A stretch of 64,000 nucleotides of DNA from Vulcanimicrobiota bacterium (GTDB lineage: Bacteria > Vulcanimicrobiota > Xenobia > Xenobiales > JADMJV01): assembly GCA_050250895.1 (NCBI GenBank), contig JBFWNU010000001.1:2724891-2788890 (forward strand). Reading direction: 5' to 3'. The notes beneath the pieces are model-generated. The model saw only the letters and a program-made list of their open reading frames with translations, had not been told where the DNA came from and ran no database searches. This document shows positions 2,047-30,591 of this stretch, in pieces. The translations under genes were made by a program, and so were the position numbers. The stretch's first letter is position 1, and each line of letters begins with the position of its first letter.

Positions 2047-3743
2047 TAGTGCACTACCCAGACCACTCTGGCCTTCTCGGAGAATTGCAGAAACTGGTTG
2101 GGGTCGAGGCTGAATTTGCCTTTCTGCAGATGCTGGTCTTTCGTCTTCTGGTAGAGGTCGTTGAGGTTGGCCAGGTTGTCGCGGAACTTCTGGCGGTAGG
2201 CCGGCAGAGCTACCTGGGTCAGATGGCCCATCAGCTCTTCCGAGCTGACCTCGCCAGGGATGGCCAGGTTGGCGTTGACCGCCTCGATGGCCTTGTCCAG
2301 GTCGGTCGTCTCGAAGTAGCCGCTGGGGTAAGCATCCAGGTAGATCGGTTTCACTTTGATGCGGAATATGACGGGGATGTTGTCGTCGCTGGCCAGTTCG
2401 GGGTCGATGACATCCGCCTCAGAGTCGTAGAACAGGCTAAGGTCGACATCGGTGGGAGTAAAAATGCCAAAGGCGTCGGCCGGCGCCCCGGGAAAGATGG
2501 GCTGGGCGGTGGCGAAAGGGAAGTCCCACTCCAGGCTCAGCACCTCGGGCACTTCCACCACGTTGGTGTCCGAGATCGAGGTGGTGGTCGGGGTGGCGGC
2601 GTTGTTGACCAGGCTGCCCACCAGCGTGATGTCGCTGATAGCGATGTTGCCCCCGCCATAGACCACACCGTTGAAATGCGAGCTTTGCTGATCGTCGCCG
2701 CTGATGGTCACGTTGCCGGCCGCCACCAGCGCCTGGACGTTGTCGGTGGACAGGGCTGATCCGCCGTTGAGCGTGACGTCTCCAGTGCAAAAGATGGCCC
2801 CCTTGCCGCTGACTCCCCCGTTGACCACCAGATTCCCGTCCACGTAGAGATACGCACCATCGAGTTCCAGCCCGCCGTTGCTGATGGTCAGATCGCCGCT
2901 GCGGCGGACCGGTCCCTCCAGAGTGAGAGGGCTCGAACTGACCGAGGTCGTGAGTTCGTACAGACCGGTCCAACCAGCCGGGTCGTAGTCGGCGACATCG
3001 AGTTCGGGTAGGTTCTCGGGGTCGGCATTCTCCAGCACCGCTCCTCCCACCGACGTCTGGGCGCCCAGGCTGATGCTACCTCCCGACTGGGCGTCGCCGG
3101 TGATGTTGGTGGGAGACAGCGGTGACGAAGCCAGCCACAGAGGGCCTACCGCGTTGGCTACCAGGTGGCCGGGTAGCAACTGGTCGGGTGGCACCGCCGC
3201 CAGTCCCCCGGCCAGAGTTTGCAGGTCGGGCACCGAGGCCACGAAAAGCCCTCCGCTGGACGTCAGGGTGCCGGAGGTGGCGATAGCGTATCTGTAGTGA
3301 GGGATGCGCAGGATGGTTTCTAGCGCATAGGTCACTCCGTTCGACTCACCCACCGCCTTGAGCTGGGCCGAGAAGGGGGCCAGCGAGCGCCCGCTGGCCG
3401 GGGCCGCCGTGTCTTGCTCGAGGTTGTTGTGCGACACCTCCACCCCCCACAGATCGGCCCGATCGGGTTCGAAGGTGAGGCGACCGGTGGTGTTGGCGAC
3501 GACGACTTCGAGAGAGCGCTGGTCGGCATCGCCAGCCAGGCCGAAGTGCTGGTCGTGACTGAGCCGGTCGATGGCCAGAGCGGTCACCGACTCGGCCGCG
3601 TTGCGGGCCTGTTCGAGGTTGGCCTGGCGGGTGGCCAGGCGCAGGTGAAAGCTGCCCACTCCGGCCATGGTCAGCGCTACGACCAGCAGCACCGCCCCCA
3701 CCAGGACGGTGGTGGCCAGGGCTGCCCCCCTGGGCCCGGTCAC
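2046..3743 (-). CDS. PilX-like large minor pilin (paralog 2)
   Basis: 565 aa; RG|AALATTVLV N-terminus; shares long blocks with paralog 1 (e.g. DYDPAGWTGL, LTISNGGLELDGAYLYVDG). Confidence 0.7.
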   Translation of the reverse strand: MTGPRGAALATTVLVGAVLLVVALTMAGVGSFHLRLATRQANLEQARNAAESVTALAIDRLSHDQHFGLAGDADQRSLEVVVANTTGRLTFEPDRADLWGVEVSHNNLEQDTAAPASGRSLAPFSAQLKAVGESNGVTYALETILRIPHYRYAIATSGTLTSSGGLFVASVPDLQTLAGGLAAVPPDQLLPGHLVANAVGPLWLASSPLSPTNITGDAQSGGSISLGAQTSVGGAVLENADPENLPELDVADYDPAGWTGLYELTTSVSSSPLTLEGPVRRSGDLTISNGGLELDGAYLYVDGNLVVNGGVSGKGAIFCTGDVTLNGGSALSTDNVQALVAAGNVTISGDDQQSSHFNGVVYGGGNIAISDITLVGSLVNNAATPTTTSISDTNVVEVPEVLSLEWDFPFATAQPIFPGAPADAFGIFTPTDVDLSLFYDSEADVIDPELASDDNIPVIFRIKVKPIYLDAYPSGYFETTDLDKAIEAVNANLAIPGEVSSEELMGHLTQVALPAYRQKFRDNLANLNDLYQKTKDQHLQKGKFSLDPNQFLQFSEKARVVWVVH

Positions 3744-4999
3744 AGGCTCTCCAATACCTGGTAGATGGGGGCGAAGGTGGCCAGGATGATCACCCCCACG
3801 GCCACGCCCAGGACCATCATCAGAACCGGTTCTACCAATGCCGTCAGGGCCACCAGAAAGTGTTCGACCTCCATCTCGGAATACTCTGCCACGGTGGCCA
3901 GCAGGGTCGACAGGCGGCCGCTCTCTTCACCCGCGGCGGTGAGGTGAACCACCTCGGGCGAGAAGAAGCCGGTGCGGGCCAGCGCCTCCGACAGGGAGGC
4001 TCCATCGCGCAAGGCTTCGCGGCTGGCCAGCAGCGCTTGCCGGGCCAACGGACTCGGGGTCGATACCGACACCAGTTGCATGACCCGGTCGATGGTGAGC
4101 CCCGAGGCGACCAGCAGGCCCAGCATGCGGCAGCATCGGGCCGCCTCGAGGCGACGCAGCAAGTCGCCCAGTTTGGGCACATGCAACAACCGACCCTCGA
4201 TCCACTCGCGGCCGTCGGGATGGCGCCAGGCCCGGGTGGCACAAAACAAGACCAGCCCCGGGACCAAGACCAGCCCGACCATGGTCAGGCGATTGGTCAT
4301 CACGCCGGTGATCAGGCCCAGCAGTCCGGTGCTGCTCTCGGCCACCGTCGGCAGCGAGGCCAGCACCCGGCCCATGATGTTGCCCAGGATTCCCAGGGCG
4401 GCCAACATGCACAGCAGCACCACGGCCGGATAGGTCAACTGGCTCACCAGTTTGCGATAGAGGGCCACTTCCTTTTCTTCTAAATCCGCCAGGTCGTTGA
4501 GCAACCGCCCGAGCTTGCCACTCTCTTCGCCCACCGCCACCGTCCCCACCTGAACCGGCGTAAACAGTCCCGTGCCGCGCATGGCCGTGCTCAGCCGGGT
4601 GCCCTGGCCCAGAGCCGTGACGGCTTTCTCGAGTCGGCGGGCCGCCACCGGACGATAAACCTGGTCGCACAGGGTCTCGAGGCAACGATGCAGATGGATG
4701 CCGGCCTCGAACATCGAGGCCAGTTGGCGCAGGAAGACGGCTCGCTCGGTCAGGCTCCAGCCCGGCCTGGTCAGGGGCTCTTGAGGCTCGGGGGGCTTGG
4801 CCTCGGACACCGGCGGGGGGGGCGGCGGCTTGACCCTGGGCTTGGGAGGCGCCACTTTGGCCACCTCTTGCTTGAGTTCCATCAGCATCAGACCCTGGGC
4901 TTGAATGGCTTTGACCGCTTCGGCCTTGGAGGGAGCCTGCAGGCTGCCCTTGCGGATCCCGCCCCCCTTCTCGGCCGCGACATAGCTGAAGGTCGGCAT
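3740..4999 (-). CDS. pilC: Type II secretion/type IV pilus platform protein (GspF/PilC family)
   Basis: MPTFSYVA..G start, FLRQLASMFEAG, two GEESG.L motifs, LTYP and EP motifs before TM helices. Confidence 0.9.
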   Translation of the reverse strand: MPTFSYVAAEKGGGIRKGSLQAPSKAEAVKAIQAQGLMLMELKQEVAKVAPPKPRVKPPPPPPVSEAKPPEPQEPLTRPGWSLTERAVFLRQLASMFEAGIHLHRCLETLCDQVYRPVAARRLEKAVTALGQGTRLSTAMRGTGLFTPVQVGTVAVGEESGKLGRLLNDLADLEEKEVALYRKLVSQLTYPAVVLLCMLAALGILGNIMGRVLASLPTVAESSTGLLGLITGVMTNRLTMVGLVLVPGLVLFCATRAWRHPDGREWIEGRLLHVPKLGDLLRRLEAARCCRMLGLLVASGLTIDRVMQLVSVSTPSPLARQALLASREALRDGASLSEALARTGFFSPEVVHLTAAGEESGRLSTLLATVAEYSEMEVEHFLVALTALVEPVLMMVLGVAVGVIILATFAPIYQVLESL

Positions 5000-26648: not shown

Positions 26649-27472
26649 GAATCCTGGCCCTGCTGCTGCTACTGAGTTGTCAGGCCCTGGCCCAGGTGGG
26701 CAGCCTGGTATCGCTATCGGGCACCGAGGTCAAACTCACCTCGCTGCATTATCGCTTCGACCTGACCGAGCCGAAGGCTCGCCTCAGCCTCGAGGCCACT
26801 CTGGTCAATACCACGGATCGAGCGCTTGACGCCCACTACTTGCTGTTGGCTACCCAGGCGCGTCCTCCGGTCGAACTCGACGGCCGACCCTTACCCGTCG
26901 AGTCGACCTCGCGGGGCGAGTTTTACGGGCATGCCTTTCTGGTGCCCCTGTCACCCCACGAAGAGGCCCGACTGACCTCTCGCGTGACCGTGGTCGGCGA
27001 GCCGGCCTTTGATGCCGGACGGCGTGGCTACCGCTACCATCTGGTGGTGCCGGGAGATGGGACCACCGAGTTCGAGTTCGAGCTGCCCGAGTCTCTTTGG
27101 CTCGGCTCGGCCCTATCGCTCGAGTCCACCGAACCCGGCCGTTATCGGGCTCGGGCCCTGACCGGTCAGGTGGCTTTCACCGTCGGCCCCAAGGCCGACC
27201 TCGGATTCGCCCTGGCGTTGGGCGGGCCCATGGTGGTTTTCTTGCTGGCCAGTCTTATCGCTCTTCGGTGTCGACCGGCCGTGGGCCTGACTCTGGCCAT
27301 GCTGCTCGCCGGCGCGACCTATCAGGCCCTCAGTAAATCGGTCTGGCTGATCTGGTCGACCGAGCCGGCCGTCGAGGACCTGCTGAGGTGGTCGCTGGTG
27401 CTGGCGGTCACGGGGGCCGCCGTGGTCACCACCGCTGCCGGAGGAGTGCGTGAGCCTGCTGAGCGAGAGTGA
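26645..27472 (+). CDS. Hypothetical protein with signal peptide and C-terminal TM helices
   Basis: TTGA overlap with MscS stop; (M)RILALLLLLSCQALA; three hydrophobic C-terminal segments. Confidence 0.6.
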   Translation: MRILALLLLLSCQALAQVGSLVSLSGTEVKLTSLHYRFDLTEPKARLSLEATLVNTTDRALDAHYLLLATQARPPVELDGRPLPVESTSRGEFYGHAFLVPLSPHEEARLTSRVTVVGEPAFDAGRRGYRYHLVVPGDGTTEFEFELPESLWLGSALSLESTEPGRYRARALTGQVAFTVGPKADLGFALALGGPMVVFLLASLIALRCRPAVGLTLAMLLAGATYQALSKSVWLIWSTEPAVEDLLRWSLVLAVTGAAVVTTAAGGVREPAERE

Positions 27473-28148
27473 ACTCGAGCGCCGGGACGTGGTGGCCAAT
27501 TGCTCGATGAATCGGGAACGCGGTCTGGCCAGCTATGTCCGAGAACTCCGCTTCGACCCGCTCGGACAACTGGCCGCCGGGGATTGCTGGCTTGACCTTG
27601 GCTGCGGTCAGGGACGGGCTTTGCGCGAGGCAGCCGAGCGTCGCCCGGATCTCCGACTCTTCGGAGTCGACCTGGTATTGCCCGAGCCTTCGCCTGACGT
27701 TGCGTTCGTGGCGGCGGCGGCCCGCCATTATCGACCCCGCCAACGCTTCGGCCTGATCACGATGGTCCACTCACTCCACTATGTGGGCGACAAACTGGGT
27801 TTGCTCGAGCGGGCGTCCCAATGGCTCGAGGAGCGGGGCCGACTGGTGGCCCACCTCGACCTGGCCAACCTGCGCTGGCCTGACGGTCGCCGGGCCGGTC
27901 CCTGGCTGGTCGGCCAGTTGCGTCAGGGTGGTTGGCTCTATCAGGCGCGCCTTCGCCTGCTCTCGCGGGTGGGACCGGCCCCGTTCGGCCCGGAGGTTGA
28001 ATTCCTTGGGGCTGACCCCTCCGCGGGCCCGAACTTCACCGGCCAGGCTGCCGTCCACTCGGTCTACCGTCGCGCACGAACTTTCGACGAAAAACATGTA
28101 ACAAAAGAAATTTCTGGCCGACGTCAAGACCCGAATGGGCAACTTTAG
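27450..28148 (+). CDS. Class I SAM-dependent methyltransferase
   Basis: WLDLGCGQG, FGVDL, LHYVGD. Confidence 0.8.
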   Translation: MSLLSESELERRDVVANCSMNRERGLASYVRELRFDPLGQLAAGDCWLDLGCGQGRALREAAERRPDLRLFGVDLVLPEPSPDVAFVAAAARHYRPRQRFGLITMVHSLHYVGDKLGLLERASQWLEERGRLVAHLDLANLRWPDGRRAGPWLVGQLRQGGWLYQARLRLLSRVGPAPFGPEVEFLGADPSAGPNFTGQAAVHSVYRRARTFDEKHVTKEISGRRQDPNGQL

Positions 28149-28196
28149 CTCGATCTGGACGGCCTTGGATGCGATTTTGGGAACAGGTTTTCCCGG

Positions 28197-28224
28197 TTGA
28201 CATCGTCTTCTGGATGGATATAAT
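28197..28224 (+). promoter_or_regulatory. Consensus sigma70 promoter driving the non-coding unit
   Basis: TTGACA (28197-28202)-N16-TATAAT (28219-28224). Confidence 0.85.
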
Positions 28225-28230
28225 CAAAAT

Positions 28231-29308
28231 CGTTCCGACCACGGAGCCGCCCCGAATCAGCGTGAGTTCGGTGGGGTCTTACACCCCCAGACGGAATGTC
28301 TAAAGGGTAAGCGTTGGGCGAAGACGACATCGCACCCCCGGCGCCCCGGCCGGTCTCCAGGGCAAGGCTCGACTCGGGCCCTAGAACCCTCGCGAGGTTC
28401 GTCCGGCTCCCGAGAATCGAGAGGTCTGGTGCTGGTAGGTATGGCGGCCAGACAGCGGAACACTCAATTGCCGCGGCGCTCCACGATGCCGAAAGAGAGT
28501 GACTTGAGAACCGGTGGTCCGGTTTACGGTGGCAAACCCACCGGCGGCGCTGCTCGAATGCCGTGACAGAGGCGTCTGTCGAACGCGAGCAGGGTAGCTC
28601 TCCACCATAGAGAGCCTGAAGCCTCGATAAGGATTTCGGGGCGAGGCCCGAGACCCAGGCCGGAACCGTGAGGGTAAAGGCTGCCGCTAGTCGGCAGTGC
28701 CGGAGCAGGTCGAAAACGGGAGTCTGGTGCAGGTGAGGTGGCGGCCAGACACGGAGTCGCTCAGGCCGTAAAGAGCGAGGGTTGCGCTCAAACCATAGAA
28801 GCGCCCAGAGCCGACTGGTTAAAACGGGAGTCGTCGCAACGACTTAAGCCGACGGGTCGTGGAGTGCCCGAGGGTTGGAAATCTCGCGCCTGACGTGAGA
28901 ACGTCGAATAGCGAGCGCGGAACTGCTCGAGTGCCGTGGGGGGTGACCGCCAGAAAAGCGAGCAGGGGTAGCATGCATACCTGAGATATGCGCAGCGCTT
29001 CGTCTGAAGACATTCGAAGCGAGGCCCGACGCTCTTGCCGGAACCGTGAGGGGAAAGGCCGACTGGATTCGTCCAGTTCGGTGCCGGTCAAGGCGGACCA
29101 CGGGAGCCTGGTGCAGGAGAGGCGGCGGCCAGGCAGCGGAGCTATCGCTTGCCGCGACGACCACTAATCGTCGAAAGAGATAGACAGCAGATGTCTCGAC
29201 TGCCTAACAATGAGACGACCCTCCGCTTCGGCGAAGGGACCCCGACGCCTGAGTGGTGGCGGTCGGGAACCGAGAGGCGCTCCCTGGCAGGGCGCCTCTT
29301 TCCTTTTT
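28231..29308 (+). ncRNA. Candidate large (~1.07 kb) structured non-coding RNA with internally repeated modules; family not recognised
   Basis: No credible ORF; bounded by promoter and terminator; dense hairpins; three copies of a stem+pseudoknot module and two copies of a multibranch module with compensatory base changes. Confidence 0.8.
29272..29308 (+). terminator. Intrinsic terminator
   Basis: GAGAGGCGCTC-CCTGGCA-GGGCGCCTCTT followed by TCCTTTTT. Confidence 0.8.
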
Positions 29309-29410
29309 CCGGGGGGCGCGTGGGAGTGGTGGAAATCGCCAGGTGCAGTAGGCGTGGATGCTTAGCTGCGGGCGCTTTGGAACTTTGGGGTCGGGGCTGA
29401 CGAGACAGAG

Positions 29411-29686
29411 ATGGGACTAGCGTTGCGGTTTGCCGGACGGCCGCTGCTTTTTCGGAAGCTGGTGGGCTTGGACGGAGGATGCACGCTGGACGGGATCGCG
29501 GATTTGCAGAACGCGATTCGCGAGGAGTTGGGGTTCGGAGAGCCTGTCGTGGTCCCGGACCGTGGGGCTACCTTCTTTGCCACCGTGGGGATGCCGTTTA
29601 CGCTACATCCGGAGGCCCAGTTCCACGAGGTTCAGCTGCGAAAGCTGAAGGATATTCGGTCAAAGTTCCCGCTGGTTGAGCGGTGA
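29411..29686 (+). CDS. Small hypothetical protein
   Basis: 91-aa ORF with ATG filling the gap before the convergent mqnD; no recognisable motif. Confidence 0.35.
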   Translation: MGLALRFAGRPLLFRKLVGLDGGCTLDGIADLQNAIREELGFGEPVVVPDRGATFFATVGMPFTLHPEAQFHEVQLRKLKDIRSKFPLVER

Positions 29687-29757: not shown

Positions 29758-30591
29758 TCAGGCGGTGACGAAGTCGACCTCGATCGAACGGGGGATGATG
29801 CCGGCCGAGTGGCCTCGCGAGAGCAGTTCACGCACGGCGGCGCGGCCGGCCTGACCGAAGTCGAGAGTCGTGTCGTTGACGTACATCTCGACGAAGCGGT
29901 CGCAGGTGTCCTTGTCGAGCCCTCGGCCCCACTGCAGAGCGTAGTCCAGGGCCTCGTCGCGGTGGTCGAGGCCGTAGCGGATGGAGCGGTCGAGGATGTC
30001 GGCGACCTGGGCGATGCGTTCGGGGCCCAGCGAGCGGCGCACGATGGTCACTCCCAGGGGCAGAGGCAGCCCGGTCTGCTCTTGCCACCATTGGCCCAGG
30101 TCGACCAGTAGCTCGAGGCCTTCGGCGGCATAGGTCAACTGGCCCTCGTGGATGACCAAACCGGCACTGGCCTCACCCGAGCGGACCGTCTCGAGGATTT
30201 GGTCGAAGGGAACCACTTTGTAGGGGAAGTCTCCGGCGTAGAGGCGGGCTACCAGGAAGGCCGTGGTCAGCTCGCCGGGCACGGCTATCGGGCCGGCAAA
30301 GGCCTCTTCCGCCTCGACCCCGGGGCGGGTCACGAAGATCGGGCCGTAACCCTGGCCCAGGCTGGCCCCCGCCGCCAGCAAGGCATAGTCGTCGGCCAGG
30401 TGGGCATAGGCATGCAGAGAGACGGCCGTGACGTCGAGCTTTTGCTCGAAGGCCCACTCGTTGAGGGTCTGGATGTCCTCCATGACGTGCTCGAATTCGA
30501 ACTCGCCCATGTCGATGCGCCGCTGCGCGGTGGCGCAGAACATGAAGGCGTCGTCAGGGTCGGGGCTGTGACCTACGCGAATCAGGGTCAC
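29758..30591 (-). CDS. mqnD: 1,4-dihydroxy-6-naphthoate synthase (futalosine menaquinone pathway)
   Basis: GHSPDPDDAFMF, DIQTLN, G.GYGP, PGELTTA, IHEGQLTY, LPLPLG, MYVN. Confidence 0.92.
   Translation of the reverse strand: MTLIRVGHSPDPDDAFMFCATAQRRIDMGEFEFEHVMEDIQTLNEWAFEQKLDVTAVSLHAYAHLADDYALLAAGASLGQGYGPIFVTRPGVEAEEAFAGPIAVPGELTTAFLVARLYAGDFPYKVVPFDQILETVRSGEASAGLVIHEGQLTYAAEGLELLVDLGQWWQEQTGLPLPLGVTIVRRSLGPERIAQVADILDRSIRYGLDHRDEALDYALQWGRGLDKDTCDRFVEMYVNDTTLDFGQAGRAAVRELLSRGHSAGIIPRSIEVDFVTA

Follow-up and report, generated by a model that had tools for sequence, protein, structure and literature searches.

Only a few large structured RNAs are known from bacteria, and each of them has opened a new question. 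OLE, GOLLD, ROOL, and raiA are long, structured, and abundant; they contain many conserved unpaired nucleotides as well as pseudoknots, and have no known biochemical role. GOLLD and ROOL are often phage-borne. GOLLD, ROOL, and OLE are reported to form homo-oligomers (PMC12286853). Arrays of pseudoknotted units have been described at UG27 reverse-transcriptase loci; they carry conserved motifs in an asymmetric inner loop, vary in unit number, and are found in gut prophages beside three proteins, with units of ~135-167 nt (10.64898/2026.09.22.753630). Here, we analyzed an RNA gene on a 64,000-nucleotide stretch from a Vulcanimicrobiota bacterium (GenBank assembly GCA_050250895.1, contig JBFWNU010000001.1, positions 2,724,891 to 2,788,890 of the forward strand). 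This whole stretch is called the window, and coordinates refer to it unless stated otherwise. Equipped with a strong promoter and terminator of its own, the gene encodes a ~1.05-kb stand-alone non-coding transcript that runs from ~28231 to 29310 on the plus strand, as do all of its features given below. We regard a modular non-coding RNA built from tandem domains and acting as a scaffold as the probable explanation overall. For its structural and evolutionary part our confidence is high; a function as a stable, abundant, multivalent scaffold RNA is put forward tentatively.

The window RNA shares the general features listed above with OLE, GOLLD, ROOL, and raiA, but it consists of tandem copies of one domain, has six paralogues per genome, and lacks an Rfam match. 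Rfam 15, which includes OLE, GOLLD, ROOL, HEARO, raiA, tmRNA, RNase P, and 6S RNA, gave no match at gathering threshold in the 64-kb window. Between 27900 and 29500, three matches at chance level were obtained at E up to 10 (best 18.7 bits against a threshold of 34); ten related loci had no match at E up to 0.1 and 16 other loci none at gathering threshold. No known ribozyme was detected by Rfam in the 27900-29500 region or the ten related loci. The window RNA thus belongs to a tandem-domain RNA family absent from Rfam 15, with domains of ~190-280 nt and 3 to at least 11 domains per RNA, and no description of it was found in a literature search. In contrast to GOLLD and ROOL, it had no match in 50,697 phage records, in plasmid records, or in IMG/VR, and among 401 genomes of the phylum it was seen in three families of one class.

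The UG27 arrays are the nearest published analogue: their units are structurally conserved and sequence-diverse, and contain a pseudoknot and inner-loop motifs in variable number. This similarity to pseudoknotted unit arrays (10.64898/2026.09.22.753630) would fit an RNA component of a reverse-transcriptase or defence system, such as UG27 arrays, retrons, or diversity-generating retroelements. However, RVT_1 (PF00078) had no match in the 99.6%-complete genome, while control genomes were positive. No neighbouring gene is common to the six paralogues, the neighbours of the window copy being a methyltransferase and an MqnA-like gene, and the phage and viral searches were negative as described. In addition, the units measure 190-280 nt compared to ~150 nt, and each RNA is a single gene with its own promoter and terminator. 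We therefore rejected membership in the UG27 arrays, and consider a reverse-transcriptase-associated RNA of any kind extremely unlikely. tmRNA also contains several consecutive H-type pseudoknots in one stable RNA, but the window RNA has neither a tRNA-like domain, nor a tag frame, nor an Rfam match. ARAGORN found no gene in the window and no tRNA-like domain or tag frame; the canonical tmRNA of this genome is encoded on another contig (180.6 bits), and the RNase P RNA is also located elsewhere.

An earlier note, made from the sequence of the window, had described three copies of a stem and pseudoknot module starting at 28424, 28722, and 29106. Every stem and pairing that it listed is present at these places, and the modules are parts of three folded domains that succeed one another in the RNA. 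Each module contains a hairpin whose purine-rich inner loop is conserved. An H-type pseudoknot follows, in which the loop of a 4-bp stem pairs with a downstream strand, beyond an A-rich linker and, where present, a small hairpin. Hairpin e1 of module 1 (28424-28453) consists of GTCTGG (28424-28429) and CCAGAC (28448-28453) around the loop TGCTGGTAGGTATGGCGG. It is followed by a pseudoknot (28455-28501) of GCGG (28455-28458) with CCGC (28471-28474) and CACTC (28461-28465) with GAGTG (28497-28501), with an inserted hairpin at 28475-28490 and the linker GAAAGA (alignment A2). In module 2, hairpin e2 (28722-28750) pairs GTCTGG (28722-28727) with CCAGAC (28745-28750) around TGCAGGTGAGGTGGCGG, and its pseudoknot (28752-28778) pairs ACGG (28752-28755) with CCGT (28766-28769) and TCGCTC (28757-28762) with GAGCGA (28773-28778), with the linker AAA and without inserted hairpin. 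Module 3 contains hairpin e3 (29106-29134), GCCTGG (29106-29111) and CCAGGC (29129-29134) around TGCAGGAGAGGCGGCGG, in the loop of which relatives carry an extra hairpin, and a pseudoknot (29136-29183) of GCGG (29136-29139) with CCGC (29152-29155) and CTATC (29142-29146) with GATAG (29179-29183), with a hairpin at 29156-29172 and the linker GAAAGA (alignment A1).

To these copies we applied a covariance model, R1, built from 17 module-3 orthologues of other loci only. It contained no sequence of the window and left out the pseudoknot, and the 64 kb were searched on both strands with filters off. The three modules, whose hairpins e1, e2, and e3 all lie inside R1 matches, were recovered well beyond chance: module 3 at 29100-29186 (76.1 bits, E 5.1e-21), module 1 at 28417-28504 (57.1 bits, E 2.9e-15), and module 2 at 28716-28784 (48.3 bits, E 1.3e-12). 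The next-best match in the window reached 17 bits (E 0.0036) at 29234-29331, just before the terminator. Within this match lies a fourth, weak copy limited to the hairpin, CCCGAC/GTCGGG around GCCTGAGTGGTGGCG (29241-29267), at the place of which paralogue P2 has TGCTGGAGTGGAGGCGG. The claim of three copies holds for the strong matches; the pseudoknot plan itself occurs seven times in this RNA (see below). As a separate observation, the hairpin loops (28430-28447, 28728-28744, and 29112-29128) consist of purine tracts, in which words resembling Shine-Dalgarno sequences, such as AGGAG, GGAGG, and GGTGG, seem to be frequent; such tracts also occur in locus L081 at 583-611, 815-843, and 1034-1063. 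A kissing contact of the purine-rich loops with CUCCAC-like loops of the inserted hairpins, which seemed plausible by eye, failed for window module 3 and was dropped.

The pairing proposed for each module is maintained among orthologues despite sequence change. In module 3, 96.6% of 357 cells were paired, compared to 33-41% with slid partners. In its crossing helix, which is 93% paired, both partners have changed in six of six pairs; the 4-bp stem and the stem of hairpin e3 are both 100% paired, with two of four and three of six compensatory pairs, respectively. For module 2, MAFFT had split the loop, and we counted in a fixed register with our own script: 94 of 102 cells from 17 orthologues were paired, as against 26-58 with slid partners, and none of 1000 partner shuffles scored as high. 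Its pseudoknot is formed by 14 distinct hexamers among the 17 RNAs. Module 1 was 92.3% paired (25-50% slid). Here, the 4-bp stem is 100% and the pseudoknot helix 95% paired, two of five pairs of the latter being compensatory (A-U to G-C in four RNAs, C-G to U-A in one). Two crossing helices, each with independent support, were thus found in the modules, while their simultaneous formation is beyond the reach of sequence. As judged by covariation, selection acts on the two helices in every module, with their strands crossing as in an H-type pseudoknot, in line with the selection on RNA structure that the earlier note had suggested. Since the folding energies of the modules are unexceptional (given below), their support comes from homology and covariation and not from energy. 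This concerns especially the 4-bp stems, which the nested minimum-free-energy fold leaves open in favour of the pseudoknot helix and for which covariation is the evidence. A possible lengthening of the 4-bp stem, which would compete with the pseudoknot, was considered as well.

The 9.5-Mb genome contains six diverged paralogues, the window copy included. All of them begin alike behind a TTGAC promoter, share conserved blocks in colinear order, and end in a terminator. Identity of the window copy to one paralogue is 73% over 798 columns, and to the remaining four it is ~74% over 363 columns. In relatives, nhmmer detected 11 further full-length RNAs of 992-1502 nt. Within the window RNA, 28544-28761 and 28917-29149 align over 239 columns with 70.3% identity (z = 35 against dinucleotide shuffles). 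A similarity of this strength between second and third domain is limited to the window RNA and one paralogue. In an unrooted tree of 34 units, a single branch (Shimodaira-Hasegawa-like approximate likelihood ratio test, SH-aLRT, 98) splits all second units from all third units. The branching is mirrored on the two sides, and the window lineage is basal on both. The simplest reading would be one duplication predating the sampled family. The growth by tandem duplication claimed in the earlier note is supported in this way, with the corrections that the duplicated piece is larger than the module (239 columns) and that the duplication is old. Its remark that such growth is unusual for large non-coding RNAs is fair, as neither Rfam 15 nor our literature search holds a comparable family.

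Many copies per genome and tandem units are also expected of transcribed repetitive or selfish DNA (satellites, miniature inverted-repeat transposable elements, or elements like repetitive extragenic palindromes), in which case the pairings would be leftovers of the repeats. Yet compensatory changes preserve the helices across orthologues, promoter and terminator sit at fixed and conserved places, and inverted ends or a transposase were not seen beside most copies. Synteny is moreover kept across genera: one paralogue retains its downstream small open reading frame (ORF) and putative thioredoxin gene. We consider this explanation very improbable.

In a domain of the family, the hairpin and the pseudoknot are combined with a GGGGUAGC hairpin junction and a second junction that bears a GNRA tetraloop. 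In a sister genus, the RNA measures ~1.24-1.4 kb from promoter to terminator, and its five domains stand in tandem at distances of 214-242 nt. Every one of them has a GGGGTAGC hairpin and a GNRA junction in addition to the hairpin and a compact pseudoknot. In relatives, three to five domains follow each other in tandem, and on metagenome contigs as many as 11; three and five anchors were counted in loci of the second family. R1 had matches in 14 of 151 genomes of the phylum, 11 of them among the 15 genomes of the window's own family. This structure-model search was confined to the phylum. The anchor motif was present in 18 of 401 phylum genomes: 11/15, 5/5, and 1/1 in three families of one class, 0/19 in a small-genome family of the same order, and 0/297 in the largest family. 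The restriction to one class means that the motif was not found elsewhere in what was searched; the reversed pattern, used as a control, had no match anywhere. Genome G098 has a single candidate R1 match of 25.6 bits and one match to the anchor motif, and an R1 match in the second-family locus L082 was discarded as a coding-looking stretch.

In metagenomes, a 23-nt anchor pattern was found on at least 120 contigs. We examined 80 of these loci, 53 of which are shorter than 1.5 kb. A looser anchor gave 1-11 units per contig in these 80 loci, with 132 of 180 spacings between 200 and 299 nt, and one contig consists of eight units of ~225 nt. In the consensus of 111 non-redundant units, seven helices are retained and 71-94% paired. 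The taxon was examined for one metagenome contig alone, the long contig L096. It shares synteny with three second-family genomes, in which proteins beside the RNA loci are 95%, 92%, and 80% identical to its adjoining protein. A scan of genome contigs with a 24-base RNA pattern returned 36 stretches, 20 of which belong to the window RNA family. By title, the 20 metagenome-assembled genomes (MAGs) concerned are eight Vulcanimicrobiota, four Candidatus Xenobia, four 'uncultured Burkholderiales', two 'bacterium', and two 'Selenomonadaceae'. Twelve of the other stretches (L040, L046, L049, L052, L053, L058, L059, L061, L062, L064, L066, and L069) represent a single conserved protein-coding region, presumably of DNA polymerase III alpha, in unrelated MAGs of the Acidobacteria type and others. 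These and four other chance matches were set aside, and they show that hits of such a pattern have to be read before they are counted.

The RNA is delimited by clear transcription signals. The sigma-70 promoter (28197-28224) consists of TTGACA, a 16-nt spacer, and TATAAT, agreeing with the consensus at 12 of 12 positions. Such a site was counted once in 2.5 kb, compared to a mean of 0.3 in shuffled sequences. Transcription probably starts at ~28231-28240; the contig of one sequencing run begins at 28240. The distance from TTGAC to the 'CACGGA' at the 5' end is identical in 17 of 17 full-length genes. As an additional observation, an A/T-rich tract often precedes the TTGAC of these genes (28100-28224 in the window and 16 others) in a genome with 63% G+C, and the combination looks like a strong promoter of the UP-element type. 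The intrinsic terminator (29272-29309; hairpin and T run 29272-29300) has an 11-bp stem followed by a T run. The stem is 96% paired in 17 RNAs, with five compensatory pairs, and contigs of sequencing runs end at it (29276-29288). A protein-coding gene was rejected: in the ~1,050 nt between promoter and terminator, no ORF exceeds 106 aa and this longest one lies on the opposite strand, none of four tested ORFs had a Pfam match, and the alignment of the paralogues is rich in indels and paired changes.

The gene is flanked upstream by a methyltransferase gene (27450-28148) and downstream, on the opposite strand, by an MqnA-like gene (29758-30591). A 91-aa ORF without Pfam match (29411-29686), at most a candidate gene, lies just 3' of the terminator. 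Aptamer-like pseudoknot modules in front of this ORF, which starts at 29411, could suggest a cis-acting leader for a downstream gene, for example a riboswitch array. Tandem riboswitch aptamers such as those for glycine do share duplicated folded domains side by side with the window RNA. They are, however, 5' leaders with two aptamers, whereas the RNAs described here are terminated and stand-alone, contain 3-11 domains, and have no constant downstream gene: the genes following the six paralogues differ. The strong terminator is located ~100 nt before the ORF, and the RNA contigs stop there. A leader function is hence highly unlikely.

In metatranscriptomes, three RNA-library runs from two studies yielded contigs across the gene: two contigs over 28258-29278, three over 28286-29203, and one over 28361-29288. 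The word depths of RNA-library contigs were 2572-3907 and 358, and those of flanking bins 0-8. These contigs show presence in RNA libraries, with ends agreeing with promoter and terminator. Uncovered parts of the gene, like runs X20 and X21 with their small shares, are evidence neither for nor against. Separately, run X1, of unknown library type ('DNA?'), gave a cDNA-like contig of 1038 nt that corresponds to 28240-29276 without flank. Breaks of the RNA-library contigs near 28690-28719 and 29091-29105 in two runs raise the question if the RNA is a precursor, the tandem domains of which are cut into working RNAs of unit size (~200-260 nt) like tRNA or CRISPR arrays. The regular spacing of 200-299 nt in arrays of up to 11 units and the local folding of every domain would fit. 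But the breaks fall exactly on repeated hairpin sequence, where assemblers split anyway, and a single contig spans 28361-29288 in one run. Furthermore, the domains of the window RNA abut without spacers and differ in make-up, and no known ribozyme was found with Rfam. Processing of this kind seems quite improbable to us.

How the modular RNA could act as a scaffold may be pictured as follows. The family would have grown through repeated tandem duplication. The pseudoknot sequences would have diverged between domains, so that each domain would fold with itself and not with its neighbours. The same conserved loops would then be displayed several times along one chain and might form a multivalent surface for a protein or another partner, or the domains might pack on each other. 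A speculative extension, which we rate as doubtful, is an RNA counterpart of repeat proteins: the tandem, near-equivalent domains of one chain would stack via GNRA tetraloops and conserved inner loops into an ordered, pseudo-symmetric superstructure. If this were true, the size of the superstructure would be set by the number of domains (3 to 11 or more), the RNA would provide a multivalent cellular platform, and a single molecule would build an assembly of the sort for which GOLLD, ROOL, and OLE have to oligomerise.

Within the scaffold idea, a protein sponge comparable to CsrB/RsmZ or 6S RNA would be a special case, its repeated loops titrating many copies of one regulator. CsrB and RsmZ share repeated hairpin motifs, several paralogues, and strong promoters and terminators with our RNA. 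Three to four near-invariant purine-rich loops per RNA, six paralogues with strong promoters, and the high representation in RNA libraries agree with this possibility. GGA is the typical word of CsrA sites in hairpin loops, bound by CsrA/RsmA. Here, it is not kept throughout: AGGAG occurs in some loop copies, GGTG or TGGT in others, and many loops have GGT instead. The window RNA is also ~3 times longer than CsrB/RsmZ, its pseudoknots and multi-way junctions are more elaborate than known sponges require, and no candidate protein was found, although no search aimed at one was made. Taken together, a sponge appears unlikely.

Several points weigh against the explanation of the window RNA as a modular scaffold. 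The scaffold role itself is inferred. The first domain resembles the other two just over the module of 50-76 nt (z ~11), and second and third domain are barely alike in 15 of 17 RNAs (z -0.9 to 6.2). Because of this low similarity, common descent of the domains in these 15 RNAs rests on architecture and the unrooted tree. Neither in the window nor in L017 did Tandem Repeats Finder report an array, which is due to the copies being less than ~70% alike. The modules do not stand out in folding energy (z 0.23, 0.16, and -0.74; 200 shuffles each), covariation is uninformative in the most conserved loops, which are invariant, and both the sequences and the cut points of the alignments were chosen by hand, with the count for module 2 coming from our own script. 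Finally, the expression data are assembled contigs of relatives with 90-99% identity, retrieved with the window gene; such contigs cannot give levels, strand, or true ends, and their depth is a poor measure.

Growth by duplicating an entire folded domain head to tail is familiar in proteins and barely documented in natural RNAs. The natural variants with 3 to at least 11 domains represent a ready series for cryo-electron microscopy, probing, and folding studies, including the question how repeated RNA domains avoid mispairing. In a little-known, mostly uncultured bacterial lineage, the family also offers a clear starting point in the search for a new assembly of RNA and protein or of RNA alone.

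The remaining parts of the window RNA are structured as well. For the alignment of 17 RNAs, RNAalifold predicted 55 consensus helices, many of them with compensatory pairs. Together with a pairing scan, it revealed the same pseudoknot plan at four additional sites (28273-28311, 28544-28592, 28917-28965, and 29187-29217), giving the total of seven; the helices of two of these carry four to five compensatory pairs. The 5' domain (28232-28311) includes the first pseudoknot, formed by GGGG (28273-28276) with CCCC (28284-28287) and CTTAC (28278-28282) with GTAAG (28307-28311), and a hairpin at 28289-28301. Its helix 28278-28284/28304-28310 is 86% paired, with five pairs changed on both sides in the 17 RNAs, and by eye GGGG/CCCC is replaced by GAGG/CCTC in relatives. 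The second domain starts with a pseudoknot (28544-28592) of GCGG/CCGT and CTGCTCG (28550-28556) with CGAGCAG (28586-28592), with a hairpin at 28565-28580. Helix 28550-28555/28587-28592 is 93% paired, with four pairs changed on both sides, and R1 gave a weak match at 28510-28594 (E 0.06). The rest of this domain (28593-28710) contains GGGTAGC hairpins and a three-way junction, CCGG (28660-28663) with CCGG (28700-28703), which encloses a GTGA tetraloop hairpin (28666-28673); its helices covary.

Downstream of module 2, the segment 28780-28916 also has covarying helices. It comprises the hairpin GGGTTGCG...CGCCC, which is related to the GGGGTAGC hairpin, and a connecting domain, in which 28829-28844 and 28883-28915 form hairpins. 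The family anchor motif is found at 28778-28794 with three mismatches. The pseudoknot at the start of the third domain (28917-28965), identified in the sequence, again combines GCGG/CCGT with CTGCTCG (28923-28929) and CGAGCAG (28959-28965); the paralogues have CTGTCA/TGACAG, CTGCTA/TAGCAG, and CTGCTT/AAGCAG. It is followed by the most conserved part of the family (28966-29095), which is 85-93% identical across genera and combines the GGGGTAGCATGCATACC hairpin and GAGGCCCG with an 11-bp hairpin (28992-29025) and a three-way junction (29037-29088) that includes a GTGA tetraloop hairpin. The anchor motif matches perfectly at 28965-28981. This part and 28593-28710 belong to the internal repeat of 239 columns. 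The seventh pseudoknot (29187-29217) pairs GCAG (29187-29190) with CTGC (29200-29203) and GTCTC (29193-29197) with GAGAC (29212-29216) in the pairing scan of the window RNA and P2; in relatives it was judged by eye alone.

Some observations concern other copies of the gene. No DnaA-box-like 9-mer (up to one mismatch to the consensus) is present upstream of the window copy or P2. Four of the six paralogues (P3-P6) have such sites ~70-110 nt upstream of the -35 element (G000 C1:114737, C1:1926439-1926459, C2:139349, and C2:144346), amounting to five in 1.04 kb compared to 0.052 per kb genome-wide, and similar sites are seen by eye upstream of several relatives' genes (L009, L010, L020, L027, and L029). 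P3 (G000 C1:112077-116010) is located directly 3' of two ORFs that, from reading their sequences, we take to encode ribosomal proteins L10 and L7/L12, and 5' of a small conserved ORF and a presumably thioredoxin-like one. The small ORF also adjoins the RNA in two genomes of another genus. P5 and P6 (G000 C2:138085-139245 and C2:143085-144245) are near-identical, lie on the same strand 5 kb apart, and have similar downstream ORFs, which points to a recent segmental duplication. In locus L012, two RNA genes of the family are arranged back to back on opposite strands (1210-2647, minus; 2739-3071, plus), less than 100 nt apart.

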